Assembly (NCBI GenBank): GCA_021325135.1
Contig: JAJPHT010000007.1
Location: 33,776-97,775 of the forward strand
Length of the DNA: 64,000 nucleotides
DNA from: Pseudomonadota bacterium
GTDB lineage: Archaea; Thermoplasmatota; SW-10-69-26; JACQPN01; JAJPHT01
Direction: 5' to 3'
Shown here: positions 20,117-60,170 of the stretch, one piece after another
Layout: each line of letters starts with the position of its first letter
Numbering within the stretch: position 1 is the stretch's first letter
The notes under the pieces: model-generated
Databases searched by the model: none
What the model was told of the DNA's origin: nothing
Seen by the model: the letters and a program-made list of their open reading frames with translations, nothing else
Position numbers and translations under genes: made by a program

Positions 20117-20586
20117 GCGGCGCGCGCTGGACCAAGCAGCGACTCCACGTCGCCCAGCCGGAAGACGCTCCCCGCCACGAGCACCGCCCCCACGGGATAG
20201 AGCCACGACACGACCAGCGCGCGCAGCCCATAGGGCGCCGAGAAGAGCCAGCGCCCGTCAAGGAAGAACGCCAGGTCGAGCCACGCGAGGCCGAGCACGA
20301 GCAGCCACAGCAGGCGGCCCGAGACGGCGCGCACGCGCGGCTGCCGCCCCACGCGCACCATGACGACGCTGCCCGCCACGTCCAGCGCCAGCGTGAGGAC
20401 CAGCAGCGCCTCGCGCCACGCGACCCGGTACCCCAGGTCGAAGTCCGGCGGCGCGGCGCCCGGCCCCGCCACCGCGTCGCGCGCCTCCTGCTCACGCTCC
20501 TTCGCCAGCTCCTGGAGCGCCATGAGCGGGCCCGCCAGCATGGCAAGCCCGCAGAGCACGAGCACCACGACGTCCAGGCGGCGCAC
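20113..20586 (-). CDS. Membrane protein
   Basis: Four hydrophobic helices; GTG start inferred. Confidence 0.6.
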   Translation of the reverse strand: MRRLDVVVLVLCGLAMLAGPLMALQELAKEREQEARDAVAGPGAAPPDFDLGYRVAWREALLVLTLALDVAGSVVMVRVGRQPRVRAVSGRLLWLLVLGLAWLDLAFFLDGRWLFSAPYGLRALVVSWLYPVGAVLVAGSVFRLGDVESLLGPARAA

Positions 20587-20627
20587 AACGGAGACGAGGC
20601 GTCCGAGGTTGAAAAAGGTCGCCAAAA

Positions 20628-20696
20628 GCGGGGGGTTCGGGGGGCGGAACCGGGGGCGGGCACTCGTGCCGGAACGACGCGGCACCCGTGCCGGAA
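20628..20696. other. attL: half REP arm, core and GGCAC-N2-GTGCC palindromes
   Basis: GCGGGGGGTTCGGGGGGCG then GGCACTCGTGCC (20659) and GGCACCCGTGCC (20681). Confidence 0.75.
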
Positions 20697-20793
20697 AGGT
20701 CGCCCGGTGGGTCCAACGGCCCCGGTTGACCTGTCGGCACGAGGCAGGGCCGCGCCCTTCGAGGGGTCCCGTGGAACCGACACGGTGACCCCG

Positions 20794-21249
20794 ATGGACG
20801 CGAAGACCGAGACGATCCAGACCCACCCCCCGACCCTGCTGCCGGTGAAGAGGAGCCGCGCGGCCTACCAGGCCGGGCGCAGGAAGCACAGCTACCCCCT
20901 GGCGTTCAAGGACGAGACGGAGAAGGCGCGCTTCGAGGCCATGGCGGCCCAGGCGGGGTACGTCAGCTTCAACGCCTATCTCCTCCAGCAGTTGAGGAAC
21001 GCCACGTCGGGCGCGATCTACCCGCCCGAGTATGTGGACGGGCTTCGGAAGGAGGTGGAGAAGCTTCGCGCCTGGTTGGACCAGGCGCGGGAGGAGGCGG
21101 GGGAGCTTCGGAAGGACGGGAAGCTCCTGGCCGCGGAGAAGGAGACCCTGGTGTTCCTCATCAATGCCACCAAGGACGGGAAGGACACTCTGGCCGACTT
21201 CGAGCGGATGCACGGCAAGAAGGCCCACCGCGCAGGGGTGCTCGCGTGA
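20794..21249 (+). CDS. RHH-like DNA-binding plus coiled-coil protein (DUF5805-like integrase partner)
   Basis: EKARFEAMAAQAGYVSFNAYL then coiled coil; GTGA overlap with the integrase start. Confidence 0.6.
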   Translation: MDAKTETIQTHPPTLLPVKRSRAAYQAGRRKHSYPLAFKDETEKARFEAMAAQAGYVSFNAYLLQQLRNATSGAIYPPEYVDGLRKEVEKLRAWLDQAREEAGELRKDGKLLAAEKETLVFLINATKDGKDTLADFERMHGKKAHRAGVLA

Positions 21250-22856
21250 TCGACCCGAGGAGCCGCCAGCGCGTCCAGACCGTGACGGTCAAGCCCACTC
21301 TGGACAAGGCCCTGAGCAACGCGGCCCTGGTGGAGATGTGGGAAAGCGCCTGGGGCGGGGACCGCATGGGCCGCAAGGTCTTCTCCCGCTACAAGCGCGT
21401 GGTCCTCGACGCCATCGGCTACTTCCGCCACCCGGACGGGCGCGAAATCCCGGCCCGCGAGTGGACCAAGGAAGGCGTGTGGGACTACCTCCAGTTTGTC
21501 GAGAAGAACTACTGCGCGGCCTTCAAGACCGTCACGTTCGACCGTCCGACACCTCAAGGCGCGTGCGACAAAGGCCAATGGACGGGGCTCATGGACGCCG
21601 CGGAGGCGCTTCAGGCGAAGTGCGCCGCGTGCCCCCTGTTCGTGCGCCCCGGCGTCGAGCACCGCGTCAACGGCCTAGCCCACTGGTTCCGGCACCTCTC
21701 GATCCTGGGGGCGATCCCGTTCAACATCATGCTGGAGGTCCGCGACGCCAGGAAGGGGCAGGAGGTCGCGGCGCCCGCGGGCGAGCGCAGGCGCAACCCC
21801 ACGCCCGACGAGATGAAGAAGCTCGTCAACGAGACGGCGCACCCCGCGCGCCGCGCGTTCTACGCGATCAGCGCGAAGTGCTACTACCGGCCCAACGAGA
21901 TGATGGCCCTCGACCGGTACGCGAGCTTCGGGCTCACGATGCCCAAGGACGTGCCCCTGCCGCCGGGGTTCGACACCGGCTTTCCCTCGCATCCCGAGGT
22001 CGCGCCCTTCGACCAGGGCGGCGACATGGTGTACGTGCCCCGCAAGGTCACGCCAGAGGGCGTCGAACTCAAGGACAAGCGCCGGGGGAACCGGTGGATG
22101 GTCGTGGACGCGGAACTGCGGCCCATCGTGGAGCAGTTGTTCGCCTGGTGGGAGGCCAACGTCGCGCGCGACGAGAAGGGCAGACCGTTGACGACGAAGC
22201 TTTGGCTCAACTACCGCGGCTTCGCCTTGGAGCAAGATGACCTGTATTATTCGTTCTTCTACGACGACTGCTTGCGCCTGGGCTTGATGACGGAGGCGGA
22301 CCAAAAGGACCCCTTGCGCGTGTGGACGGCTCACTGTCAGCGCCACTTCGCGGAACGTCTGTCAGTGGAGTTGAACTTCCCGGACATTTGGGCGCACCAC
22401 TTCCGGGGAGACAAGATCGGCAGCGCGCGAGGCAAATACTACCAGCCCGAGCCCCTTGCCGTGCGGAAGGCCTACCACGAGTGGATGCCACGCCTCGGAT
22501 TCCTGCCCTTGGCGGAGGCGCCCAAGGCGCGAGAGGCCAGCGAGGAGGAAGTGCATCGGATGGTCCTCCGATCCATGCTGATGCGCGTCACGAAGCGGCC
22601 CGGGCACGCGGGGGAGAGCCACGTCGTCCACCGCCTCCGCGTGGAAGGCACGGAGTGGATCGTCCCGGCGAAGGTGCTCAGCAGCGTGCTCTACGCGCTC
22701 CGCAAGGCGGGCATGGTCGAGCCGAGCGTGGAGAAGGCCGACGGGCAGGCGCGGGAGTACGTGCCCCGTGCGGTCCTCGTGGCCCTTTGTGAGCGGGCGT
22801 TGGGCCTCCTTGATGCGCAGAGTCCGGCCCAGGGGGCGTGCGTGATGGTGGCCTAG
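21246..22856 (+). CDS. Divergent tyrosine recombinase/integrase
   Basis: YYRPNE (R), KRRGNR (K), HCQRH, FRGD, KYY; resembles the haloarchaeal RGD-type integrases. Confidence 0.82.
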   Translation: MIDPRSRQRVQTVTVKPTLDKALSNAALVEMWESAWGGDRMGRKVFSRYKRVVLDAIGYFRHPDGREIPAREWTKEGVWDYLQFVEKNYCAAFKTVTFDRPTPQGACDKGQWTGLMDAAEALQAKCAACPLFVRPGVEHRVNGLAHWFRHLSILGAIPFNIMLEVRDARKGQEVAAPAGERRRNPTPDEMKKLVNETAHPARRAFYAISAKCYYRPNEMMALDRYASFGLTMPKDVPLPPGFDTGFPSHPEVAPFDQGGDMVYVPRKVTPEGVELKDKRRGNRWMVVDAELRPIVEQLFAWWEANVARDEKGRPLTTKLWLNYRGFALEQDDLYYSFFYDDCLRLGLMTEADQKDPLRVWTAHCQRHFAERLSVELNFPDIWAHHFRGDKIGSARGKYYQPEPLAVRKAYHEWMPRLGFLPLAEAPKAREASEEEVHRMVLRSMLMRVTKRPGHAGESHVVHRLRVEGTEWIVPAKVLSSVLYALRKAGMVEPSVEKADGQAREYVPRAVLVALCERALGLLDAQSPAQGACVMVA

Positions 22857-23171
22857 ATCGCCGAGGGTGGCAGGTGGCCGGGCCCTTGTGCGCGCTCTCC
22901 GGGTTGGGCCTAGGCGTTCATTCTGAAAATACGCCTCGGAGGCGCGCTTGCTTACGCCCGCAGAGCGGAGCCTAGGGGCTTGCCGCAGTTGGGGCAGGCT
23001 CCGTCCAGGCGGGGGGTGGTGTAGGCTCCGCAGGTGCGGCAGGTTCGGCGGGGTCGGGCGTGGGGTCCCGCGATGGGTCGGGCCGCGGGTGGGTCGGGCA
23101 CGACGCAGAGACCACGGGCGCGAGGATAAACGCCTCGGTTCCTCTGCCCGGGGTGCTCACGGTTCGTGGGC

Positions 23172-23450
23172 CTAGGAGGGGCGGCCCAGGAGCGATTGTG
23201 CGCGTTCCACGAATCGTTCCGCCTCTTGCATCTCGGCCTCCGCTTCAGTCAAGGCGGCCTCCACGTTCTGTCCAGTGCGCCAGGCGTCTTGGAGGGTGAA
23301 GACGGCGCGGGCGGCTTCCGCCACGGCGCGGGCGGCAGCATCGCACGCCTCCAGGTTCTGGGCGAGGCGGGCCATGCGGGCGGCGAGGTCGGCGCGCGTG
23401 ACGAGCTCTTCGGCGGCGGGGAGGCGTGCGTGGGCTCGCTCCGGGCTCAT
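23172..23450 (-). CDS. Small helical hypothetical protein
   Basis: Coiled-coil-like; ATGA coupling to the upstream mini-ORF. Confidence 0.55.
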   Translation of the reverse strand: MSPERAHARLPAAEELVTRADLAARMARLAQNLEACDAAARAVAEAARAVFTLQDAWRTGQNVEAALTEAEAEMQEAERFVERAQSLLGRPS

Positions 23451-23540
23451 CGCGCCTTCACGGCTCGTGAAGGTCTTAAAGCGGTGGAGGGCGCACGCGG
23501 GCTGCTGCAAGCCCTGGCGGGGCCCGGGCCGGCGGTGGAG

Positions 23541-23696
23541 TCAGCCATGTGCTGGCTGCTCCTCCGGTTCGTGGTCGAGCTTCGCGCGTTCGATTCCCTG
23601 CCAGTCGAGGTATCGAAGCGCGGCTTCGCGCGTCATGGTCTTGTGCACGAAGACCGCGCGCCTGAGGTGGCGCAGGATGGCGGCCTCGTCAGCCAA
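23541..23696 (-). CDS. Small hypothetical protein (51 aa)
   Basis: TTG start with AAGGAGG RBS; LADEAAILRHLRRAVFVHKTMTREAALRYLDWQG; not in the ORF track. Confidence 0.55.
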   Translation of the reverse strand: MADEAAILRHLRRAVFVHKTMTREAALRYLDWQGIERAKLDHEPEEQPAHG

Positions 23697-24024
23697 GGGC
23701 GCGGGCCTCCTTGCGCGGCGCAGAGGTCGAGGCGATGGCTGCGCGTTCGTTCGCGTAGGCGCGCAGCGCGCCCGCGATGCGGGGCGCTTCCTCGTCCAGC
23801 ACGTCCAAGGCGTGCAGGACGCGCGCCGCGTCGTCCGGGTCCGTGGGCCAGGGTGCGAGGCCTAAGAGGATGGGCAGCGGGTGGAGGGCGTTGCCGAAGC
23901 TGACGCGCGAGCGGCGCCGCGTCGCCATGAACTCGCGGGCCTCCAGCTGGAGGCCGAAGGCTTCGAGGGCTTCGCGAGAGTCCCCGCGAAGCCACTTGTG
24001 GTTCCGCTCATCCGCCACGAGCAC
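23689..24024 (-). CDS. Hypothetical protein
   Basis: Protein-like composition; overlaps the next small gene. Confidence 0.55.
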   Translation of the reverse strand: MLVADERNHKWLRGDSREALEAFGLQLEAREFMATRRRSRVSFGNALHPLPILLGLAPWPTDPDDAARVLHALDVLDEEAPRIAGALRAYANERAAIASTSAPRKEARALG

Positions 24025-24901
24025 ACCCCCCGGGCACCAAACGCAAGCCGGGTTGTGTCGTCGTGTGGATCATCGCGCGGAGGGCGAGGCGGGAGGGCGC
24101 GGGGCGGGGCATGTGGCTTTGAGTCTCGCGGGCTTCTTGGCGTTTTAGAAGGAAGGGAGGGAACGCGTCCCCCTTCCTCCCACCCTCCGGTTTCGTGGAG
24201 GGGTGGTCTTCAAGAGGCCGAGGCCGCGCCAGGCCGGCAATGTGGGTCGGATGGGGGGTGGGTTTTTCCCCACCCACCCATGGGTGCCGCGCGTGGTCCT
24301 CGTGCGGCACGCTGGCCGTGTGGTGCTCGTGCGCGTGCTCGTCGTCCTGGGCGCGGCGCGCGTCGTCGTGGCCGTGGGGTCGGCGGCGAGGGGGCAGGAG
24401 GGCGAGGAGGAGCAGGGCGAGGCCAAGGGCAGCCGCCAGCTTCGCCAAGGAGTCCGCGCTGGGCGCGGGCGGGATCGTGAGCATGAGGCTCGCCAGCGCG
24501 AAGCTGGCGGCCTTCTGCGGGATCGTGGCGAGCGTGGGGGGCGCGGCGGGGGACGCGGCCGTCGTCGCGGGCCTCGTGCTGCGCGTCGTCCTGGGCGTGG
24601 AGATCCTCGCGACGGGGACAGGGTCCGCGTCGGCAGGGGGCGCGAGGGTCGCCCGGAGCGCGCGGGAGGCGTCCGGGCGGGGCGTGGGCGCGCGCTCGTG
24701 CGTCGTCACGGCGCCCGGGTCTTGGGAGAGGTCGGGCGCGTGCAGCGTGGGCAGGAGTGCGGCGAGGATGGCGGGCGGGGGGTCGCGGGGGTTCCAGGCG
24801 GCGGGGGCGCGCATCGGAGCGGGGCTGCTGCGGGCTCCAGATTTTGAGGAATGAGGGTACGTCCCCAACGGCTCGCGTCGAGCCTGGGACGTGGCATCGG
24901 G

Positions 24902-25223
24902 TTCCTGGGATTCGCTCCACCGCGCGCTGTATGTCCGAAGTAATGCCCTCCAGTAGGGGGCATTACATAGGGACCTCCAGCGGCGGTGCGAGACTCCAGG
25001 GAATCGAGCCGGGTAGGGAGTCAAGGATGCGGGCCTACCCGGCTCTTGAGCCTCGTGCAGATCGTGGCGGTTGGGGAGGCTGCGTCCGCCTTGGTGGTGC
25101 ATTTCCTGGCGTCGGCTGCCTTGAAATCGCTCCACCGCCCGTTGCATTTCCGAAGTAGTATTCCTAGGCGGAATACTACATACGAATGCAACGAAGGCGG
25201 TGCGAGACATCAAGGCAAGACGC
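24902..25223. repeat. Two tandem copies of a conserved structured motif
   Basis: TCGCTCCACCGC..TCCGAAGTA..TACATA..GCGGTGCGAGAC at 24912-24994 and 25127-25208, with different but base-paired stems. Confidence 0.85.
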
Positions 25224-26330
25224 AGACAAGGAGTCAAGGATGAGGCCTTGTCCGCGTCCGAGGGAGGTGCCAACGCGCTTCGCGCCGGTCGCCAGATCGT
25301 GACGCGCAGGGCCTTCAGCGCGTGCAGGGCCGGGCGTGCGGTCGTGCAGATCGAGGCGAGGAGCGCGCGGGTGAGGGCCGCGGCGCTCTGGAGCGTGACG
25401 GTGAACTCCTCACGGGCGAGCCAGATGGCGAGCATCGCTCGCAAGGTCGCTGGCGAGGCCATGAAGGCGACGTGGCGTCGTTGCGTGGGCGCGCGTGGAG
25501 CTGGGCGCCGTCACGGTGACGGAACTCGGGGTGCGCGTGGTTGGCCTCGTTGTTCCGAGTCGTTGAAAAAATTCTGAGTTGAAATTCGAGTTGCAGGAAG
25601 GGCAGGGCACGATCCCCTTGGCCTGGTGATCTTGCGGGCAGGGGCGCCTCCTCGGGCCTTCCGATTGTTCTTCAGAATACACTACTGGCCTTCGTAAACT
25701 ACGGCGTAGTGTATTCCGGGAACAACCGGGTCCCGAGGGCTCCTCCCCGCCGATCCCCGCCAAGGATTTTCCTTGCCTGCTCAAAAGAGGTCAAGATAGG
25801 CGGCTTTTGAGAGCGGGCGACCCGTCGAGGCGAGGGCGGCGCGCTCTGCACACTGGAGGCCGCGCAGGGGGCCCACCGGCAACAGGCCCAAGAAGACGGG
25901 AAGGGCGGAGCCGAGGGCGAGGAGGAGTCGGAGCGCGGGCGCCTGGTGAACGTCCATGCGCCCGAGGTAGGCCGTGGTCCAATGTCAAGGGTTTCGGTGA
26001 ACCATTCCACCCGACCATGCCCCGGAGCCATGTCCGGGAGCATGGTCAAGGAGGGCGCGTCAGGGAGGCCCGAGGCCAGCGCTTCCACGCACGGTCCGCC
26101 GGGGACACCGAAGTGGCACATTCCATAGGCATTCCCTTTGGGAAGGGGAATGCCTCTGGAGGCGCTTCGTCTGTCCCGGCGGTGCGTGGGCGATTGGCGC
26201 CTCTTTCCAAGTCAAGATGTGGGCCGGAACTTCGGCGCGTGCCAAGCGCCCACGCAAGGCCAAGCGAAGAGGAGCCACCGGGTGGGGGGTGGGAATGCCC
26301 CTTTGATATCTGCCTGGGTGTCGTGGGTGG

Positions 26331-27545
26331 CTACGTGGGGGCAACGTCCAAGAAAGTCGGGCGCTGGTCGCGGTGGTCGGCGGTGGCGAGGACGAGGGCT
26401 TGCACCGCTTCGCGCAACACGGCGTCCCTGGCGTGCTCGCCGTTGAACTTGGTGAGCCAGGGGCCGGCGTAGGCGGCGTCGGCGGCCTCTTGGGCGGTGA
26501 GATTCCCCGCGGTCGCCCGGACCCATGCCTGCTCGATGACGCTATCGGGGGTGGGGGTGTAGTTGGCGAGGTATCCCTTGTGGATTTCCAGGACGACGGC
26601 CCGGGTGGAGTTGGCGCGGAAGGCGGCCTCCAGCGCGCCTTCCGTCCAGCCCCGGTCGAGGGTTTGGTTGATGACGTAGGGGAAGAAGTTGTGCGCGAGT
26701 CCGTAGAAGAAGGAGTCGTCGGCGCCTCCGCGCTCGTATGTCACGGTCTGGGAGTCCGCGCGGACGTGCTCGATGTAGGCCAGCCCGGCGGGTCCCACCG
26801 TGATGACCTGCGAGGTCTGATTTGCCGCGGCGTCCTCGGCGGCGCGCGCCTCGGAGAGCCAGAAATCCGCCGTGGTGAGCCGGCGATCGGCGCGGCCAAG
26901 GGCGGTACCATCCGTGGCGTATGACTTCCCGTCGTCGTTTGGGTACGGCTCGGGGCCCGGCTTGGCGCTGGAGATTTGCGCGGGCCAGTCCACGTCCAGG
27001 ACCGCTCGGGCCTCTTCGGCAGCCAATTCCGCCAAAGCTAGGGCGTTGATTGCCTGCACGCTATGAGCCTTCGGTCGAAATGCCGTGATGTTCGCCTCCA
27101 TGGCGGCCGTCGCGTTGCGCACCTCGCCGGGAGCGTTCTTCCATGTCTGAATTTGAGTCTCGCGGTCGGGGGATGCGAACCCACGCGAGAGGGCGAATGC
27201 ATCTTCGTAGGCAAGTTCCGTGTCGTCGATGGCGAGTGTGATATTGTGGTCTTGGGCGTAGAACTTGGCAAACGTTGTCCCTGCGTAATCCCGAGTCCAA
27301 GCAGCAGTTTCGCCGCTAACATTCATCGCCGATGCGTTGAGACGGTCGGTCGCCGTGACCTCCCAGTCGAACTGACGCTCCAGGAACGGGGAGGTCGCGT
27401 CGACGGTGTGCAAGGGAGACAGAGGCGTCGGGGCGGAGAACGTGGGAGTTGCCGGCCCACCCAGATGCCCTGTTTCCAAGATGAGCACGATGGCCAAGAG
27501 AATCCCGAGGAGGCCGAGAGCTTCGGGAGGTACACGTCGACGCAT
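26331..27545 (-). CDS. Membrane-anchored/secreted hypothetical protein
   Basis: N-terminal hydrophobic helix; GGAGG RBS; lies directly after the 27555-29858 gene. Confidence 0.75.
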   Translation of the reverse strand: MRRRVPPEALGLLGILLAIVLILETGHLGGPATPTFSAPTPLSPLHTVDATSPFLERQFDWEVTATDRLNASAMNVSGETAAWTRDYAGTTFAKFYAQDHNITLAIDDTELAYEDAFALSRGFASPDRETQIQTWKNAPGEVRNATAAMEANITAFRPKAHSVQAINALALAELAAEEARAVLDVDWPAQISSAKPGPEPYPNDDGKSYATDGTALGRADRRLTTADFWLSEARAAEDAAANQTSQVITVGPAGLAYIEHVRADSQTVTYERGGADDSFFYGLAHNFFPYVINQTLDRGWTEGALEAAFRANSTRAVVLEIHKGYLANYTPTPDSVIEQAWVRATAGNLTAQEAADAAYAGPWLTKFNGEHARDAVLREAVQALVLATADHRDQRPTFLDVAPT

Positions 27546-27554
27546 GCTAACCTC

Positions 27555-29858
27555 CTAGCCGTGCCTGATTTCGAGGGTCTTGGCGAGGTCGATCCAGTTC
27601 CACCACTCGTCGGTCACGGCATAGAGCCCGTTGAAGTTTTGCTCGATCGAGTGCAGGGCCTTGACCCCTCCGTGGAAGGTGCTTTGGCTCGTGCATGAGC
27701 CGCCGGTTCCGGGGATGGCGGCGCATCCCCATTGGACGTTGAGGTCCATGCCCTCGTCGTGGCCGTAGATGTCCGTCTTTTGGAAGTAGACGTAATCCTG
27801 AGCCTGCGGGGACGTGCTGACGTCGTTCTGGACGACGTAGTCGGAGCATGCCGTTCCTTGGCAGGAGAAGAGTTGGGCCACGGCGGGGAGCCACTGGCCG
27901 TCCGGCACGAGCGCCAGGAAGTTGATCAGGTCCTGAATGGAGGGCCCGATTGCGGGAGCTTGCGATGCGCTCGCGCCGTCCCGGCTGAAGTCCGCGATCC
28001 CGTTGGGCGTCGTCTTCCAGAACTGGCTGCTCTGGGTGATGTCTCCCCGGATGATGCCAATCTCCGGGTTCTGGGTCCGGTAACACATGACCTGGACCCA
28101 ACTGGAGTCGAGCGGATGGCACATCGAGACGCCCGACGACCAGGCGTTGTTGCTAGACACGCCGTGGCCGGTCGTCATGGTGTACGTCTGCTGGTTCCCA
28201 GTGAGGGCGTTCTTGCCATAGAACTCGTAGTCGAAGCTCCACGCGGCGGGCTGGTCGATCGAGCGGTGTCCCGCGCAGTCGACCACGCCGCGGTCCACGC
28301 GCGAGAACTTGAAGAGGCCCCGGTCGTAGGCCTGGAAGTCGGAGACGGTCCGCGTGTTGTTGTCGCCGCCGTCCGTGTACGAAACCGGCGAGGGCGAGTT
28401 GCTACCGCAGGGAATCCAGTTGCGCGTGAAGCAGGCCTTCACCGTGCCAGGCAGCGGGTCGCCGAAGGCGCTCGTGGTGCAGGAAATGCTGCCGGAGACG
28501 CCGTCGCGCCAGTAGAACCGTCCGTTCGCGCCGAAGGCCACGTCTCTCGTGCCGCTGAAGCTGCACGTCCCGCTCTCGTTGGCGCAGAAGGCGTACCCCA
28601 TGGGACCCGTGGGCAGGGCGCTGGTCTTGGTGAAACACGCCTTCACGATCCCGTAGAGCGGGTCGCCGAAGAGGTCGTTGTTGCAGTCGATCCCCAGGTT
28701 GACGCCGTTGAGGTAGGTGAACGTCCCTTGCGCTCCGTAGGCAACGTCGCTCTTGCCCGAATAGCTGCAACGGTTGTTCTCCGAGGCGCAGTAGGAGTAC
28801 CCGGGGGGACCTGCAATGCGCGTGTAACACGCCTTGCCGACCCCGTAGAGGGGATCGCCGAAGACTGTGTTCGTGCAGTCGGTCCCGCCCGAGAGCGTGA
28901 GGCTGTTGAACGTCCCGTCGGCGCCATACTTCACGTCCGCGGGCCCCGTGAAGGTGCAGTGCTGGGGCTCGGGCACGCAGTAGGTGAAGCCCGCGGGCTC
29001 CCCGCTTCCGTCGGTGGCCTTCGTGTAACAGGCGTTGGTCGTCCCGGAGTTGGGATCGCCGAACACGTCGTTGCGGCAGCTTACGAAGTGGTCCACGCTG
29101 TGCTTGTAGAGGAAAGACGAGCCGGCGCCGTAGGCCACGTCCTTGAGGCCCGTGAACGTGCAGTCCGCGCCCTGGTCCGCGCAGTATGTGTAGCCGCTGG
29201 GCCCCGTGGGCGTCATGGGCGACGCGGTGGTGCGGTTCGTCCCGTTCCCAGCCGCGTCGTTGACCACGATGGTGTCGTTCTGCGGGGCTCGGCTCGTCGC
29301 GGCCACCGAGGAGAGCACCGCGGCCCCGAGCCCGGTTCCTGCGGCGGACGGTGCGAGCGCCGCAGGAGGGGCCAGGTCAAGGGGCGTGATGGGGAACTCG
29401 GCGACCGTGGCGCCGCTGAGCGGGTCGACAAGCTGCCAGAGCCCGGCCTGGTCGGGAATGACGTGCCAGAAGAGGTAGTAGTGGTCCGGCGCGTTCGACG
29501 CCCGCGTGTCGGTGAACTCGACGCCCGTCCTGCCCACGATTTGTCCGAGAGGGTTCACGAGTTGGAGGCTCTGGCGGGCGGGCGCCCCGTAGACGGCGAA
29601 GCTCTGCGCCTCCGAGAGAGAGTAGCCCACGAACTGAGGGCGTTCGCCGCCGAGGATCATGGTGGCGATGTGCCCCGAGTAGTGAAGCCCATCCGGCGCG
29701 TCGGGCGCGGCGTCTCGCGCGGGCGCCCCTGAGGCGCCCGTGGCGGGCGCGGGCTCCGCCGCGAGGGCCAGCGTCGGGGCCAGGAGGAGAAGGACGCTGA
29801 CGAGCGCCAGACGGGTCGTTCGCGGGCGTGTGCTGGATCGCGTAGTTGGCTCTTGCAT
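27555..29858 (-). CDS. Secreted protein with four Cys-rich FGDP repeats
   Basis: Signal peptide; four copies of GY.YCA.E...C.F.G..DVAYGA.G.F........C.N..FGDP..G..KAC. Confidence 0.85.
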   Translation of the reverse strand: MQEPTTRSSTRPRTTRLALVSVLLLLAPTLALAAEPAPATGASGAPARDAAPDAPDGLHYSGHIATMILGGERPQFVGYSLSEAQSFAVYGAPARQSLQLVNPLGQIVGRTGVEFTDTRASNAPDHYYLFWHVIPDQAGLWQLVDPLSGATVAEFPITPLDLAPPAALAPSAAGTGLGAAVLSSVAATSRAPQNDTIVVNDAAGNGTNRTTASPMTPTGPSGYTYCADQGADCTFTGLKDVAYGAGSSFLYKHSVDHFVSCRNDVFGDPNSGTTNACYTKATDGSGEPAGFTYCVPEPQHCTFTGPADVKYGADGTFNSLTLSGGTDCTNTVFGDPLYGVGKACYTRIAGPPGYSYCASENNRCSYSGKSDVAYGAQGTFTYLNGVNLGIDCNNDLFGDPLYGIVKACFTKTSALPTGPMGYAFCANESGTCSFSGTRDVAFGANGRFYWRDGVSGSISCTTSAFGDPLPGTVKACFTRNWIPCGSNSPSPVSYTDGGDNNTRTVSDFQAYDRGLFKFSRVDRGVVDCAGHRSIDQPAAWSFDYEFYGKNALTGNQQTYTMTTGHGVSSNNAWSSGVSMCHPLDSSWVQVMCYRTQNPEIGIIRGDITQSSQFWKTTPNGIADFSRDGASASQAPAIGPSIQDLINFLALVPDGQWLPAVAQLFSCQGTACSDYVVQNDVSTSPQAQDYVYFQKTDIYGHDEGMDLNVQWGCAAIPGTGGSCTSQSTFHGGVKALHSIEQNFNGLYAVTDEWWNWIDLAKTLEIRHG

Positions 29859-30189
29859 GGTGTTCGCCTCGGTGGTGAAGGCGAGTCCGCACAAACGCCC
29901 CATTGCGCGACTCCCCCAATCTCATAACAGAATGGGGGAGAGAAAGGTTCCGGAGAATTGTTGTGAAACCCCTGTGAAGTTGCGCGGCAATGGTTAGCAT
30001 GCCGCAGGCGAGTTTGGGGCGTGGCCGAGGCGAACTTGAGGCTTCCCCTCGGCGTTGTTTCCCCCTCGCTGGGGCGGCATGAATTCGCGCGGCCCGGGAG
30101 AAGGCCGCGGGGATGGCGCGGTGGCCCCTAGGTGCGGCTGGCTCCTCAGGGCCTGCGGGTGGGGCACCTCCAGGGTGTTAGGAGGTCCG

Positions 30190-30792
30190 TCAAGATGGGG
30201 CCTCTGTGAGGGTGAGGTTGCCTTGGAGGTGGTAGGGTTGATCCAGGGTGGCAGAGGCGTAGGCGGGAGGGGACGCGAGGTTGGCCTTCTCGATGAGCAG
30301 GACGAGCCCGCTCTTGGGGTCGTGGGGCGGAATCGCGCATTGGAGATGGAGCGGGCTGGGCCCCTTGGCGGAAATCCCGAGGAAGTGCCAATGCTCTGTC
30401 CCGTCAGAATCGGTGGTTCGGTTGAGGATGCCCGCCACGAGCGTTTGGCTCGTGGTGGACGTGGCGGTCCAGGAGAAGGTCAGATCGGCCCAGGTGTAGT
30501 TGCCCGGCGGGAAGAACGTGGTCGAGTAGTATTCTGTGGACGGGTAGTTCGCGCAGGGGAGGTTGGAGCCCAGGTCGGGGCAGAAGCTTGCGCTCTGGGG
30601 CACGGTGCCGTCGTGCGTGAGGTTGAGGTTGCGCTGCACAGGTGTCGCGGCGCCCGCGGCGGGGCGGTCCAGGGCCAAGCTCGCGGGCGCACGGGCGGGC
30701 TTCACGGGCGGCGTGGCGGGCGGGGTGAGGCAGCCCGCCATGAGGAGGGCGACGAGGAGGGCACAGAGGCGCAGGGTTCGGGATGGGATCAT
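30190..30792 (-). CDS. Putative lipoprotein
   Basis: LCALLVALLMAGC lipobox. Confidence 0.7.
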   Translation of the reverse strand: MIPSRTLRLCALLVALLMAGCLTPPATPPVKPARAPASLALDRPAAGAATPVQRNLNLTHDGTVPQSASFCPDLGSNLPCANYPSTEYYSTTFFPPGNYTWADLTFSWTATSTTSQTLVAGILNRTTDSDGTEHWHFLGISAKGPSPLHLQCAIPPHDPKSGLVLLIEKANLASPPAYASATLDQPYHLQGNLTLTEAPS

Positions 30793-31134
30793 GGGGTGGG
30801 TTCTCCGGGGAGTGAGAGCACGCGAAGCGAGGCCCCGAGGAAGGTGGCCGGGCGCCCCCTTGGTCGTCGCCCGGTCCCCGAGCATGAATGGACTCGGGGT
30901 GGTTCGGGGCCTCGCTTCGCTTTGGGTCATGGGGAGCCTCCGCGCCGTTCGCGGCGGCGTTGCGCGCGCTCCAGGGGCGAGGAGCCCCGCGGGCCTGGGG
31001 GGAGGCGGGCGCGTCGGCCGGGCGGCGGGATCGCGCGCTGGAGGCGTTCGTGGCGCGGAGCGTGGGGCAGGCGGAGCTGGGGGTGGCGACGAGCTGCGCA
31101 ACGACCGAACCCCCACACCACGCTTCACCAACCA

Positions 31135-31164
31135 CCGCATATGCGGTTTCTTCCGTATATGCGG
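31135..31164. promoter_or_regulatory. Tandem palindromic operator
   Basis: CCGCATATGCGG-TTTCTT-CCGTATATGCGG between divergent genes, upstream of the wHTH gene. Confidence 0.6.
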
Positions 31165-31177
31165 CGATAGCCGTCCT

Positions 31178-31555
31178 ATGAGCAAAAGCGTTTCGGGTGC
31201 CTTGCGAAGCAGCGCGCGGCGGGGCCAAACCGTGGTGGACGTGGAGGATGTTCTCAGCAAGGCCGCTTACGTCAAGGCGATCCTCGTCCATCGCGAGCAG
31301 CACCCCGAGCCCATGAGTGGCGGAAACTTCGCGGAGCGGATGGACTACAACAAGGAGGATGCCGGCAAGCGCCGCCGCGAACTGGAGGCCTTGGGCGTCC
31401 TTGTCCTGTGGAACGAAGACCTGGGCGACAACCGCATCCCCACGCTTCTTTCCCGCCTCACGCCCGAAGGTGTGCGCATTGGGGACGCGCTTCTCCAAGC
31501 CAACGAGGAGGCCGCGAAGGCGCGCAAGCGCAAGGAGCGCGAGAAGCACCGCTAA
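31178..31555 (+). CDS. Winged-helix (MarR-like) regulator
   Basis: HTH-like FAERMDYNKEDAGKRRRELEALGV, wing region, LTPEG. Confidence 0.6.
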   Translation: MSKSVSGALRSSARRGQTVVDVEDVLSKAAYVKAILVHREQHPEPMSGGNFAERMDYNKEDAGKRRRELEALGVLVLWNEDLGDNRIPTLLSRLTPEGVRIGDALLQANEEAAKARKRKEREKHR

Positions 31556-33048
31556 TAGTCGAAGTCCCGCGGCCACCCAAGCGTGGCCTGGCGCGCGAGC
31601 GCCGCGCGCAACGGCTCCGCCACGGCGGGCCAGGCGCGCAGGGGCGCAAAGCGCGGCTCCGTCGCGATCCACGCCAACACGCGCGGGTCCAACTGGCTCT
31701 TGCCCAACGCGAGGACGACCCAGCGCGCCGCGTCGTCCACCTCGCCCAACTGGAGCGCGCAGTCGGCCGCCTTCATCTCCGCCTCCCCGTCCACGAGGCC
31801 CCGCGAGGCGAGCGCAAAGCAGTCCCGCGCCTCGGCAGGCGATCCCAGGGCCTTCAGGAGCAAGCCCTCCTCGAAGTGGTACGCGCCCGACGAGACGAGC
31901 GCCAACGCGCGGCGGATGTGCTTCAACGCCTCCGCCAAGCTGCCCTCCTCCCGCGCATCCTGCGCCAACGCGGCGTGCTGCGCCGCGCGCCGGACGCGCC
32001 GCGGGCGCGGATGCACGCGCGCCCGACGCCGCCCAAGGACCGCCACCGCGCCGCCGGAGGCCACGACGGCGCCCGCGACGGCCAGCCCGATCCAGGCGGG
32101 GAGGCCCGCGAGGGCGGGGCCCGCGACAGGCGCGGGCCGGGCCAAGAGCGAGGTGGCGCGCACGTCGCCTTCGACATGGAGCGCCGCGGCGCGGCCATCC
32201 GGCGTCGTGACCGTGCCCGCCAACGCGCCCGCAACGGTCGCCACCTCCCCTGGCTGGGCAACGTAGCGCGCGCCGGGCGTGTCCATCTCGCCGCCCGTGG
32301 GCACGAACGCGAGGCTGGAGGAGGTAAAGCTGGCCGAGTCGCGGGCGGCCAGTTGCAACGCGGGCGAAGCGTCCAGCGCGAAGCGGCCCACGTCCCACGA
32401 GAGGTACACCCACCGGAGCGTTTCCTGCGCGGGGCCCGTGGGCTCGGCCCCGGTGTCAAACTCCGTCGTGTTCTCCGCCGCCACGATGCGGACGCGCGCG
32501 CCCAAGACCTTCAACGCGCCCGCCCCGTCGAACAGCACGCTACCGGCACCGTCGATATCGAAGTGCGGGCCCGTCACTCGTGCGTAATAGAACGGTTGGT
32601 CGGGCGCGTCCGTGCCCGCCCGCCCGTTCGGGATCATCGTGAGCGTGTTCGGGTGCAGGTTGGCCGAGCCCGAGGGCGTCATCGTCATGCGGCCGGCCGC
32701 ATCAGGGTAGAGCCCCGTCCAACCCCCGCGCAAGCTGGTGAGGGTCACGCTTGCGTCGTGGACCGTGAAGCTGCGTTGCTTGAGGGGGCCGACCTGCGCG
32801 CTGGTGGGGGGCAAGGGTCCAACGCTGAAGGCTGCGTCCTGCTGTTCGTAGGAGGTCACGCGCAGCAGGGGTGCCGAGAGGTTCGCGGGGTCGTGGCTGT
32901 CGGTGTAAAGGGCCTGGGCCGAGAAACCGAGCGTGGCTCTCGCGGAGAACGAGAGGTCGCCCGTCGTGGAGAAGTCGCCTCGCGCGCTGCTCGCGCTGGC
33001 CAGCGGCGCCAGCATGATCCCAACCAAGAGCAGCCCCCACGCCCGCAT
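31552..33048 (-). CDS. Single-pass membrane protein with extracellular beta domain and cytoplasmic TPR region
   Basis: Signal peptide, TM helix then basic stop-transfer, TPR-like helices (A..H...AL, EA..CF..A). Confidence 0.7.
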   Translation of the reverse strand: MRAWGLLLVGIMLAPLASASSARGDFSTTGDLSFSARATLGFSAQALYTDSHDPANLSAPLLRVTSYEQQDAAFSVGPLPPTSAQVGPLKQRSFTVHDASVTLTSLRGGWTGLYPDAAGRMTMTPSGSANLHPNTLTMIPNGRAGTDAPDQPFYYARVTGPHFDIDGAGSVLFDGAGALKVLGARVRIVAAENTTEFDTGAEPTGPAQETLRWVYLSWDVGRFALDASPALQLAARDSASFTSSSLAFVPTGGEMDTPGARYVAQPGEVATVAGALAGTVTTPDGRAAALHVEGDVRATSLLARPAPVAGPALAGLPAWIGLAVAGAVVASGGAVAVLGRRRARVHPRPRRVRRAAQHAALAQDAREEGSLAEALKHIRRALALVSSGAYHFEEGLLLKALGSPAEARDCFALASRGLVDGEAEMKAADCALQLGEVDDAARWVVLALGKSQLDPRVLAWIATEPRFAPLRAWPAVAEPLRAALARQATLGWPRDFDY

Positions 33049-33189
33049 GCTGTCGCTTGCCGCAGCGGTGCCTAACATGAAACCCTTTCCGTGCTTCTCA
33101 TGGAGATTTCCTGTGAAAGCGCGGCGGTCCGCGCTAACCCTGGGAATATGCTTATCTCCGCTCCTCTGAGTTCCAGCCCGAGGCTTCCC

Positions 33190-33639
33190 ATGATTCGCCC
33201 CGCAGTTCTCTTCGCCGCCATGCTGGCGTTGGTCGCGCCCAGCGCCAACGGCCTGGGCGCCCAGCCCTACGCCCCCACGGCGGTCTCGGCCGCCCTCGCG
33301 CAGAACGGCGCCGAGTTCGTCGCCTGGGCGCCCGGCTCTGCCCTGCCCGACTCTTTCAACGTGTACGGTATCGCGCAGAACGGCGCCCTGACCCTCCTCT
33401 TGACAGGCGTGGAGCAGCCCTCGGCCGCCGTGCCCCCGGGTTTCTTCACCTACGGCGTGGCCGGCGTGAAGGGGGGCGTGGAAAGTCAGGTCGTGCTCCC
33501 GACGGACGCCTGCATCCATATCAATACCGACCCGCCCGGCGCCGGAATCACGGACTGCCCGAAGTCTGCCGAAGGCAAGACCCGCCTGGGCACAATGCTC
33601 CCCCTTCCGTCAGGGCTTACGCCGCGGACTCCAGCGTGA
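33190..33639 (+). CDS. Secreted protein, FN3-like
   Basis: Signal peptide; P..V.A......V.W......FNVYG...YGVAGV.GGVES. Confidence 0.65.
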   Translation: MIRPAVLFAAMLALVAPSANGLGAQPYAPTAVSAALAQNGAEFVAWAPGSALPDSFNVYGIAQNGALTLLLTGVEQPSAAVPPGFFTYGVAGVKGGVESQVVLPTDACIHINTDPPGAGITDCPKSAEGKTRLGTMLPLPSGLTPRTPA

Positions 33640-33645
33640 CGCCGA

Positions 33646-34465
33646 GGGCGCTGCCCCCGGACCCCTGACCAGATGCAGGCCGAGTGGCAGGCGGCGCGCG
33701 AGGCCTATTGGCCTTGAGTCTCGTCGTGGGCACCCAAAGACAGGGCGAGTGCGTCTAGTCCCCCTCTCGACCGTTCCACGTGCGTCCAAGTCGAGAGGAC
33801 TCCGGGCCCGACGACGGACGAGCCGACCCCGAGCGGGGCTCTGCCCAGCACCCCGCCGGGGCTCACGCCCCGGACCCCACCACGATGGCGAGGGGCGCTG
33901 CCCCTCGCGCTCCCCGCCCAGGCGCTGCCGCCCTGGGAACCCGGCGGAGTCAACCCTCTGTCAGGCCGGCGAGGCCCGATGGGAGATGGGCCGGCGGAGG
34001 GAGGCCCGCCCTCCTCCACACGACGCCCGCCCCACTCAACGAGGCCGCGCAGGCAGAGGGGGGCGCGCTTGGTGGGGCCCAGAGCGGGGCTCCCGTCCTC
34101 GGACCCGGGGCCGGAACCGGAGGGGGAGGAGCCCGCGAGGCGGCTCCCCCTTCGGGGTGGGAGTCCAGCGGGGGCGGAGCCCCCGCGGGTGCGAGGAGAC
34201 GACCGGGGGCAAGGGAGAGGACGGGGGAAGGGACCTGCCCCCGAAGAAGGGCGGCATTCACGCGCACCGCGCGCACGCGCGCCGCGCACGCGCACGCGAG
34301 AAGCACGCGGAGCCGCCCGAAGCGGGGGCAGGAGCCCCCGCACCCCCACCGCCAGGAGGCGGAGCCTCCCGAACCCTCCACCACGCAGGGACCGGAGGCC
34401 CCCGCTCTCCCCCACCACTCAGGGGGAGGGCGCTCGGCGCCCCTCCCCTCCGACCCCCCCCCCGC
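33646..34465. repeat. Array of degenerate GGGGC-N-GCCCC-N-ACCCC palindromes
   Basis: Units near 33646, 33835, 33858, 33892, 34170, 34324, 34355, 34388; non-coding. Confidence 0.7.
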
Positions 34466-34630
34466 CCCCGTTTTCTCTGCAAGGGTCCCAGCCGGGCGCG
34501 GATTGGCAGGGCGACCGCGCGGGGAACGGCCCGAGCCACACGAGAATGCCAAGATCTCCACGAGGAAAACGGCGGGTCGATGGAATTATCTAGGCAGGAA
34601 GCATACGGGGGGATAGCACGGGGCAACTCC

Positions 34631-34679
34631 CCGGCACTAGTGCCTTTTCCCGGCTCCGGGGGCGCAGCCCCCTGACGTC
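34631..34679. other. attR: GGCAC-N2-GTGCC palindrome, core and half REP arm
   Basis: CCGGCACTAGTGCC TTTT CCCGGCTCC GGGGGCG CAGCCCCCTGACGTC. Confidence 0.75.
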
Positions 34680-34685
34680 GTCTCG

Positions 34686-34838
34686 TCGTTCGGCCGCGCC
34701 GCAGCGCGGCCAAAATGGGGGGTTTCAGGGGAGCTCGCCCCCTGACGTGAAGGAGAAGTCCAGCAGACGACCGAGACGTCAGGGGGCTGCGCCCCCCGAA
34801 CCCCCCGCGGGTAGCGGCGCTGCGGCGCCGCCGAACGA
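34686..34838. repeat. REP-like palindromic dyad, copy 1
   Basis: Two inverted arms around a CCAGCAGACG spacer; homologous to 47351-47467. Confidence 0.85.
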
Positions 34839-34846
34839 TGGGGGCC

Positions 34847-49808: not shown

Positions 49809-50714
49809 TCACAGCCGGACCCGGCTGTTGTTGCCCAGGTAGCCAAGCCCCGCGTGCAGCTTCCCGGGGAAGACGGCCTGCGCCTCGCGCAGCGCGGTGA
49901 CCGCCTCGGCGGGCGGGAGCGCCTTCCCTTCGCCATAGCGCGCCACGCGCCCGTCCCACGCGTACCGGCTCCAGTCCACGGGGCGCGTCACGAGCGGCCG
50001 CAGCAGCATCTCCAGCGCGCGGGGGCCTTCCAGGGACACTCGCAGGGGCTGTTCCTCGGCGCCCGACCTGCGCAGAAGCGCGCGCGCTTCGGGTCCGATG
50101 GTGCGCGACCGGGAGCGCCCCTGCGAGTCCAGCGGCTCCCCGAAGAGCTTGCCCAGCGCAGCCTGCCACCGGGCCGGGAGATCGGACGCCAGCGGCGTGG
50201 GCGGGAGGACCTTCAACTTGCCCGCGTCGTGCACCGCGTCGAGGAGGATGACGTGCAGCCGGGGGCGCCACGCCGGCCACGGCCGGTCCTTGGCGGAGCC
50301 CACGAGATCCCAGATGCGCACCGCGCCCAGGGAGGACCACGCCTTCCGCACGGGCGTGCCCGGAAGCGCGGCCTTCGCCACGATGGCCTGCGCGGCGCCC
50401 AGCGGGCCTTTCCACCACGAGGCAAGCCCCTTGGCGTCCTGCGCCTGGGCAAGCTGCCAGAGCTGGTCCTTCGACGCGCTGGCCGGCAGATCGAACGCGA
50501 AATGGTGGACGCGGAAGTCCACCGCCGCGAGCACCTCCTCAAGGCGCTTCTGCCACTCGTAGGCGCGCGACTCGCCCTCGACGCGCGTGCACGGCGGGCA
50601 CCACCCCTCGCGCTCGCACGGGAATTTCCCGCCCGCCCCGCGACGCGCGCAGGCTCCCAGGGCGAACGCCGTCGCCCCCAGGTGGTCCTCGATGGCCTCC
50701 AGGCCGCGCTGCAT
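49809..50714 (-). CDS. Degenerate IS91-like (HUH/Y2) transposase-fold protein
   Basis: C....CPPC, HFAFDLP, WRPRLHVIL, GYLGN appear in IS91 motif order; catalytic residues altered. Confidence 0.6.
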   Translation of the reverse strand: MQRGLEAIEDHLGATAFALGACARRGAGGKFPCEREGWCPPCTRVEGESRAYEWQKRLEEVLAAVDFRVHHFAFDLPASASKDQLWQLAQAQDAKGLASWWKGPLGAAQAIVAKAALPGTPVRKAWSSLGAVRIWDLVGSAKDRPWPAWRPRLHVILLDAVHDAGKLKVLPPTPLASDLPARWQAALGKLFGEPLDSQGRSRSRTIGPEARALLRRSGAEEQPLRVSLEGPRALEMLLRPLVTRPVDWSRYAWDGRVARYGEGKALPPAEAVTALREAQAVFPGKLHAGLGYLGNNSRVRL

Positions 50715-58833: not shown

Positions 58834-60170
58834 TGCGCGCTGGCCTCGCCCTCTTCGCCTTCGGGCATGGGCGCCTTGTGCTTCACGACGCGGACGCGGA
58901 GGATGCGCCGGTTCGTGACCTTCTCGATGACGATGTCGAAGCCCGGGCCGTGGACGACCTCGCCCTCCTTGCCCAGGCGGCCAAGCTCGTGGTAGATGTA
59001 GCCGGCCACCGTGTCGTACCCCTCCTCCTCGGGGATGACGATGTCCAGCGCGTCGTTCACGTCCGCGACGTGGGTCTTGGCGTCGACGACGGCGGTCAGC
59101 TCGTCGAGCTTGCGGATGGGGTCGGTGCGCAGGTCGTACTCGTCGAAGATGTCGCCCACGACCTCCTCGACGATGTCCTCCAGCGTGACGAGGCCCGCGG
59201 TGCCGCCGAACTCCTCGATGACGACGGCCATGTGCATGCGCTTCTCGCGCATCTCGGCGAGCAGGTCGTCGAGCTTCTTGGACTCGGGCACGAAGTAGGC
59301 CTCGCGCATGAGGTCGCGCATGGGGACGCTGCCCGGCTTCTTCTCGATGAGGTGGAGCAGGAGGTCCTTGACGTAGAGGATGCCCACGACGTTGTCCACC
59401 GTGCCCTGATAGACCGGGATGCGGGAGAAGCCGCTGTCCAGGACGAAGGCCTTGATGTGGTCCACCGTGGCGTCGGCGGGCACGGCGGTCATGTCGATGC
59501 GCGGGACCATGATCTCGCGCGCCGTCGTCTCGCCGAACTCGATGACGGAGTGGAGCATGTCCTCCTCCTTCTCCTCCAGCACGCCCTCCTCGGTGCCGAC
59601 GCTGATGAGCGTCTTGATCTCCTCTTCCGACCGGAACGTGGCGCGGGCGTGGGGGTCGCGGCCGCCCATGCGCAGGAGCTTGTGCATCAGCCGCTCGTAG
59701 ACCCAGACGAAGGGGAAGAGGATCTTCTGGAGCGCGAGGAAGACGGGCGCCACGCGCAGGCCCCACTTCTCGGTGTGGTTGGCCGCGAACGCCTTCGGGA
59801 TAATCTCGCCGAAGGTGAGCATGACGAACGTGACGAGGCCCGTGGAGATGGCGACGACGTAGTTGTCGAACACCTCCTCGGCGAACGAGGTGACGATGGC
59901 CGCGGCCCCGATGTTGACCACGGTGTTGAGCAGGAGCACCGTGATGAGGAAGCGCTCCGTGTTGGACATCAGCCGCTCGACGGCGCCGACGCGAGGGTGG
60001 CCCTCCTCGACGAGCTGGCGGCGGCGCAGGCGCGAGAAGCCGATGAGCGCCGTCTCGCTGCCGCTCATGAAGGCGGAGACCGCGACGAGGACCGCGAAGA
60101 TGAGCGCCTCGGTGAGGATGGTGCCCGTGGATGGGATCGTCGGGCGGATCAGCGCGAGGCTCGGTCCCAT
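58830..60170 (-). CDS. Hemolysin/CNNM (DUF21-CBS-CorC) protein
   Basis: SGSETA, GEIIPK, IMVPR, FSRIPVY, GLVTLEDIVEE. Confidence 0.95.
   Translation of the reverse strand: MGPSLALIRPTIPSTGTILTEALIFAVLVAVSAFMSGSETALIGFSRLRRRQLVEEGHPRVGAVERLMSNTERFLITVLLLNTVVNIGAAAIVTSFAEEVFDNYVVAISTGLVTFVMLTFGEIIPKAFAANHTEKWGLRVAPVFLALQKILFPFVWVYERLMHKLLRMGGRDPHARATFRSEEEIKTLISVGTEEGVLEEKEEDMLHSVIEFGETTAREIMVPRIDMTAVPADATVDHIKAFVLDSGFSRIPVYQGTVDNVVGILYVKDLLLHLIEKKPGSVPMRDLMREAYFVPESKKLDDLLAEMREKRMHMAVVIEEFGGTAGLVTLEDIVEEVVGDIFDEYDLRTDPIRKLDELTAVVDAKTHVADVNDALDIVIPEEEGYDTVAGYIYHELGRLGKEGEVVHGPGFDIVIEKVTNRRILRVRVVKHKAPMPEGEEGEASAH

Follow-up and report, generated by a model that had tools for sequence, protein, structure and literature searches.

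The window analysed here, a 64,000-nt stretch of an archaeal contig, carries an array of four diverged structured units (U1 to U4, 24891-26243) within an integrative island. Judged by sequence and linkage, each unit is very probably a copy of the cis element of a rolling-circle double-strand origin, and the best overall explanation, to which we assign a probability of about 60%, is that such origins are kept here as an array for several helpers. In metagenome contigs and in genomes of this Thermoplasmatota genus, the element, composed of two hairpins, was found just upstream, on the coding strand, of 16 distinct genes for IS91-like HUH Reps. Its subtype follows the Rep clade; a rolling-circle double-strand origin is therefore its most likely identity. 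Comparison alone thereby defined, for an IS91-like Rep family of soil Thermoplasmatota, the origin and its predicted nick site. No description of this Rep family was found in the literature searched, and it is apparently undescribed.

Results

Architecture of the repeat units

A preliminary description of the region had reported two folded units with a spacing of 215 bp, and its observations were reproduced. The first shared 12-mer starts at 24912 and 25127 and is followed 22 nt later in both units by a common 9-mer (24934, 25149), by TACATA (24964, 25177) and by a last shared 12-mer (24983, 25197). All of the stems named for the two units were present and pairing (6/6), and the 3-nt bulge and the internal loop exist in both. 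The unit described was correct in its long hairpin but incomplete, as a second, short hairpin just beyond its coordinates and two further units had been missed. The full unit comprises about 150 nt, with the short hairpin adjoining the long one on the plus-strand 3' side (Table 1). Read on the minus strand, the short hairpin comes first, and its loop ends in CTTG^AC. In U1 and U2 the arms of the short hairpin differ and the loop word is the same; this 13-nt word occurs exactly twice in the 3.77-Mb genome, in which the exact shared words co-occur at U1 and U2 only. Folding of the region was compared with shuffled sequences and gave z scores of -7.8 for the plus and -10.6 for the minus strand, with 0/100 shuffles as good. 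A contig of the source run spans 20500-25630 with zero differences to the window.

Further units were uncovered via blocks shared with contigs C26 and C39 of the same genome. Unit counts are four in the window, four in C26 and one in C39, including two weaker units, and four units were found in L060, a forest-soil contig with the same integrase family. The nearest relative of U2 is U1. A strict genome scan, requiring the loop within a stem, yielded seven hits, all of them in integrase islands and each with an adjoining long hairpin. BLAST of U1 and U2 against 40 relatives returned short chance matches only, because the stems diverge, and exact-motif scans of viral and genome collections gave either nothing or chance matches, which the structure filter removed. 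At 30160-30220, the end of a 356-aa gene, the loop core recurs in a short hairpin that has no clear long hairpin and was missed by both the strict scan and the model. A loose scan further returned, near 59980 of G000:C44, a long hairpin of another kind that contains short internal tandem repeats and lies outside the origin family.

Table 1. Features of the island and of the origin array in window coordinates
Feature	Position	Strand	Remarks
Rep-less integrative island, approximate extent (~14 kb)	20600-34800	.	two flanking host genes adjacent in G003:C36
Small partner gene coupled to integrase	20794-21249	+	each of the four paralogs in the genome is preceded by a partner gene
Tyrosine-recombinase-like integrase	21246-22856	+	conserved R215, K278, H363-x-x-R366, H385, Y398
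Stop-free frame, 484 codons	24008-25462	-	in frame with decayed Rep start, runs through U2 and U1; role unexplained
U1, orphan rolling-circle origin (probable), type B	24891-25045	-	nick hairpin 25006-25045, long hairpin 24904-25000, conserved 3' flank to 24891
Predicted U1 nick, CTTG^AC on minus strand	25021-25022	-	from 22-unit consensus and pGT5 nick site
U2, orphan origin (probable), type B	25107-25258	-	nick hairpin 25219-25258, long hairpin 25117-25217
Predicted U2 nick	25234-25235	-	from 22-unit consensus
Decayed 5' end of clade-A Rep gene, captured with U3	25340-25444	-	~35 codons; 62% nt identity to C39 Rep; 2/500 shuffles score as high
Decayed Rep promoter/leader, AT-rich tract	25445-25600	-	61% identical to C39
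U3, orphan origin (probable), type A	25601-25816	-	94% identical to origin of Rep-bearing element on C39; predicted nick 25792/25791
U4, orphan origin (probable), ends approximate	26075-26243	-	predicted nick 26213/26212; ortholog of unit c in C26 array

Linkage of the element to an HUH Rep family

Four of the 16 Rep loci (L135, L138, L101 and L384) were found after the element model had been fixed. The loop C-T-T-G-A-C is kept in 21-22 of the 22 units, and its consensus CTTG^A agrees with the nick site of the pGT5 initiator Rep75, TATCTTG/ATA (PMC9569500). On C39, the single unit is located 367 nt upstream of the gene for a 313-aa Rep that contains a Zn knuckle, motif I, the His motif and a conserved Tyr. 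Its predicted structure, which had a moderate fold score, matched best to HUH relaxases and viral Reps (TrwC: Z 8.4, rmsd 3.3 over 131 residues), and its features resemble Rep_1 clusters. The same protein matched the IS91 transposase model with an E value of 4e-8 and 32.7 bits against a cutoff of 125; matches of the Rep to NF033538 and PF14319 were weak. That the element is an IS91 end was considered and rejected in view of this score, the internal position of CTTG and the one conserved Tyr. PDB sequence searches were empty, and IMG/VR searches with the integrase and the Rep returned zero relatives.

Two types of the element were distinguished: type A has a branched base, and type B the word GGYGGARCG at the 3' base of the long hairpin. 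These types map onto the Rep tree with one change (branch support 100/100), and only 1/500 shuffles was as low. The 3' flank of U1 is nearly identical to a Rep-linked origin in another genome (L096, G002:C42); compared as whole units, U1 and U2 had no close match among the Rep-linked origins (best z 4-5). Upstream of a distant Rep-like ORF from another genus (L080, G005) and of two Rep homologs without catalytic residues, no origin was found. Among 151 genomes of the phylum searched with the nick-hairpin model, matches were confined to this genus, which is not proof of absence elsewhere. The element family thus has the CTTG^A word, linkage to an HUH Rep on the same strand (the window copies being orphans) and a partner with HUH fold, His motif and Tyr, as in pGT5/pC194-type origins, and it is predicted to work like them.

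At 49809-50714 (minus strand), among host genes, the window encodes a 301-aa protein homologous to the Rep family (E 2e-15) that has kept the Zn knuckle, lacks the catalytic His and Tyr and has no origin upstream of its gene; a similar catalytically dead homolog is present in G007. The 301-aa protein could be a domesticated origin-binding protein.

Orphan arrays and captured origins

A six-frame HMM scan detected no catalytically intact Rep in the window or, within the extent of the contigs, in the islands of C26 and L060. Both types occur together in the window array and in L060, where unit L060b matches type A. U3 allowed the history of one unit to be followed, since its homology to C39 begins at the nick-hairpin base and reaches 35 codons into rep. 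Identity to C39 is 94% in the U3 origin, 61% in the leader and 62% in the Rep start, compared with 94%, 70% and 89% in an intact relative. It therefore appears that the origin was captured with some of its flank and was preserved while the flank decayed. Two variants are shared by U3 with the intact relative and not with C39, making it less likely that U3 is a recent copy of the C39 origin. A misassembly at U3 was rejected, as a contig from an independent study is identical over 25594-25870 and leaves the U3 junction unchanged. A decayed Rep after U1 was likewise considered and was not supported.

No more than three arrays are known, of which those of the window and C26 are related. Their shared ancestry is visible in U4 and its C26 counterpart, unit c, yet they differ in content, which suggests that array content turns over. 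A small signal-peptide-like ORF at 25790-25957 (minus strand) has its stop right after the U3 nick, and its C26 counterpart is the start of a 760-codon frame, so that U3 seems to have split an older gene. A different state was observed at L093:1328-2800 (G003:C36), where a type-B origin precedes a Rep gene interrupted by an internal stop, together with an integrase-partner gene that lacks its integrase; this locus is a decaying autonomous element.

From these sequence comparisons and by analogy with known mimics, the island may well be a Rep-less, non-autonomous hitchhiker whose units would serve as trans-acting origin mimics for several helpers. Alternatively, several Rep-bearing elements might have integrated serially at one hotspot and decayed, with the hairpins outlasting the rest by chance, gene conversion or hairpin-templated repair. 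The decayed promoter and Rep start behind U3 fit such a history, as do a weak AT-rich relic after U1 and the mosaic nature of the islands. It is nevertheless unlikely: the U3 origin is far better kept than the Rep start beside it, U4 and C26c keep their pairing despite divergence, almost nothing is left of the 10-kb module of each helper, and in three islands all four units have the same orientation, towards the integrase.

It was further considered whether chromosomal origins protect the host or the island, either by titrating the Rep of incoming rolling-circle viruses or by releasing tiny nick-to-nick circles (213, 557 and 421 nt) that compete for Rep or packaging. U1 and U2 are tightly packed, at a distance of only about 60 nt, and related islands have AbiEii, Schlafen, SIR2 and OLD-like genes, both of which would be in line with such a defence. 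We regard it as improbable, as the cargo of the window island consists mostly of secreted or membrane proteins and a few chromosomal copies would be a weak sponge unless amplified. Nick-to-nick joints were not found among the contigs, which drop rare forms, so that this result is uninformative. The kept multi-helper array remains our preferred reading of the four units.

Nature of the folded strand

The preliminary description had proposed selection on a folded single strand, and this was supported by arm pairing within units and by covariation above that of shuffles. Nick-hairpin arms formed on average 10.1 of 14 Watson-Crick pairs with their own partner and 6.0 of 14 when swapped between units, and up to four Watson-Crick pair types were found per core position. 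Covariation in the nick hairpin exceeded that of 500/500 shuffles, a figure in which independence is overstated since the units are related. The 27 long hairpins, to which the same reservation on independence applies, contain 1248 Watson-Crick pairs, 35 G-T and 37 A-C oppositions. G-T and A-C are thus rare and symmetric, and there is no RNA-type wobble excess on either strand. On the nicked strand A-G and C-T oppositions stand at 67:23 (p 2e-4, the units not being independent), pointing to the nicked strand as the folded one. These counts fit a folded displaced DNA strand, and the folded single strand is most likely DNA. An apparent plus-strand preference from G-U counts, obtained by free RNA folding, was discarded, as the symmetric count removed the effect.

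Among the options that had been offered for the structure, an ssDNA element thus comes nearest, and the readings as an ncRNA, a processed RNA array or an attC substrate were not supported. As proposed, Rfam was searched, and no family matched at either of two thresholds (only a chance miRNA match with 20 versus 90 bits); a suspected resemblance to ribozymes (hairpin, twister-sister, hatchet, pistol) was dropped for the same lack of an Rfam match. ARAGORN found no tRNA in the region.

The units are also crossed by long open frames. On the nicked strand, stop-free frames run through the last two units in all three arrays, with 484 codons in the window, 760 in C26 and 480 in L060 (outside the window at L054:10320-12600, plus strand, and L060:13620-15062, minus strand). 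Other frames mostly have 5-13 stops, and a shuffle test gave about 0.001 for the window frame. After the units, each long frame encodes a hydrophobic segment rich in Leu. A search with the C-terminal 260 aa of the window frame returned no homolog other than itself, and substitutions between the window and C26 frames are even over codon positions, without a signal of selection at the protein level. One guess is that the frame is kept open as a read-through protecting downstream expression.

These frames bear on the possibility that the long hairpin acts as RNA, be it as leader of the rep operon, as antisense RNA or as part of the mRNA of the open frame, with the nick-like loop being incidental. 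Predicted RNA folding is strong, and of the 12 orphan units 8 are crossed by a stop-free frame, while no such frame longer than 252 codons crosses a Rep-linked unit. We nonetheless consider a function as RNA very unlikely: beside the rarity and symmetry of wobble pairs (35 versus 37 of 1248) and the absence of an Rfam family, the element is located upstream of an AT-rich putative promoter, and its invariant positions are those of the nick word and not of RNA loop motifs.

The island and its integrase

The host is an archaeon with 72% GC; homologous proteins carry the label Thermoplasmatota at NCBI, and the sequencing run that matched best is from a soil metagenome. None of the runs listed as containing the sequence was of RNA. 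The island was delimited (Table 1) by its position between a membrane-protein gene and cdc6, which are neighbours in a relative; no attachment-site repeat was found at its ends. Assignment of the integrase rests on the residue pattern, because the protein had zero Pfam or NCBIfam matches. Three paralogs are encoded elsewhere in the genome. Most of the cargo consists of secreted or membrane proteins without Pfam matches. One of these, a 782-aa secreted protein (27555-29903, minus strand), has internal repeats of about 200 nt at 28426-28886, which encode Cys-containing repeated domains without Pfam match. At the right end of the island, beside cdc6, GC-rich inverted repeats were observed at 34640-34840; contig C26 starts with sequence that has 90% identity to 34122-34478, and 48 nt at 33670-33717 are found again in C39. 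Further integrase islands with runs of membrane-anchored proteins are present at L056:14988-23282 (G000:C7), which has an ATPase-like gene, and at 135043-146629 of G000:C46; neither an origin nor a Rep of this family was detected in them.

Integron attC sites have GTT/AAC core sites at the hairpin base, with one gene per cassette. The hairpins of the window had been likened to such sites, and co-occurrence with the integrase had been suggested as a check; the element was found to partner and track the HUH Rep and not the integrase. That the hairpins are attC-like sites from which the tyrosine recombinase of the island builds a cassette array is therefore largely refuted and hardly credible: the hairpins are long, imperfect, bulged and repeated near an integrase, but the GTT/AAC core is missing from their bases, no gene lies between U1 and U2, arms are never hybrid, at least two distinct integrase types adjoin the element and it was not detected at several loci of this integrase.

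Discussion

In the mechanism that we propose, Rep would nick the loop of the short hairpin and bind the new 5' end via its conserved tyrosine. Strand displacement would then expose the long hairpin first, which could fold as ssDNA and serve as a binding, priming or packaging signal. The island would capture origins from helper elements and keep several specificities. Once excised by the integrase, it could depend on any helper Rep at hand for its replication and perhaps its packaging. The resident C39 Rep would act on U3, and a clade-B Rep, of which this assembly yielded no example, on U1 and U2. A circle with several origins would be shortened if termination at the next nick site were promiscuous, and the model needs arms that are Rep-specific.

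The helpers carry a Rep, an ATPase resembling viral/Zot-type clusters and membrane-anchored proteins, and by this gene content they may be pleolipovirus-like; their operon layout fits such a set (Rep, packaging ATPase, membrane and spike proteins), with weak PHROG matches. A conserved Rep-ATPase-membrane-protein operon, which includes DUF5658 and an 871-aa anchored protein, was observed at L053:5496-10271 (G000:C39) and L063:4152-13905 and is a candidate for a new provirus family. The C39 copy apparently breaks off after the DUF5658 gene, and the island on C39 also has ArdC and prim-pol genes. More tentatively, there might be a class of archaeal Rep-less integrative satellites in which origins of helper viruses are collected and exchanged into ordered arrays, with a frame kept open, and which are spread by several helper clades.

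For a lineage without genetics, the element offers a possible replicon and directly assayable parts. U3 and the C39 Rep would form an enzyme-substrate pair within one genome, for which U1, U2 and U4 could serve as internal controls of specificity.

Among known systems, the element resembles most directly the origins of pGT5 (Rep75) and pC194, with which it shares the nick word TATCTTG/A (PMC9569500), an HUH Rep with Rep_1-like features and nicking of the strand that codes for rep. The pGT5 origin is situated within the 5' coding region, with the SSO 100-200 bp upstream (PMC9569500), whereas the predicted nick of the present element falls in a hairpin loop 0.1-0.85 kb ahead of rep, with a long hairpin immediately 3' of it. 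The base after CTTG^A is C here and T in pGT5, and unlike pGT5 and pC194 the present elements are integrated and also exist as orphan arrays. With Reps of the IS91/SNJ1 type the partner protein shares the Zn knuckle, motif I, the His motif and the weak matches to NF033538 and PF14319, and a precedent for an IS91-like viral Rep is cited in PMC6668415. The IS91 family has CTTG at the cleavage site (PMC13181058). There, however, CTTG is a host target beside oriIS, while in the present case it is part of a hairpin that belongs to the element itself and precedes the gene; one Tyr is conserved across both Rep clades instead of the IS91 pair, no terIS was seen, and the Rep is coupled to an ATPase operon.

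The SNJ2/Rep-Arvir pleolipovirus origin is likewise a bipartite hairpin origin of an integrating archaeal rolling-circle element (PMC13107129), but the Rep in that system is Rep_trans-like and not HUH, and the origin is downstream of rep. The helper dependence proposed for the island recalls that of pSSVx, pSSVi and the SRCEs on a helper virus (10.1101/2025.02.15.638363). In contrast to pSSVx and the SRCEs, which encode their own replication protein, the island encodes none and carries origins only.

The closest parallel for the array itself is found in the oriT mimics of the pWBG749 family in staphylococci, in which carriers without the enzyme hold two or three subtypes that share the nick core, have diverged in their inverted-repeat arms and are used in trans (PMC8136818). 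The island similarly lacks a nicking enzyme and has types A and B in one array, with a shared core and diverged arms. It differs in being archaeal, in having four units per array and in its partner, a replication-type Rep with an ATPase and membrane-protein module instead of a relaxase with a known T4SS, and use in trans is here a proposal. If the arrays do work in trans, they would be an archaeal counterpart of the oriT mimics and would offer seemingly immobile islands a way to move.
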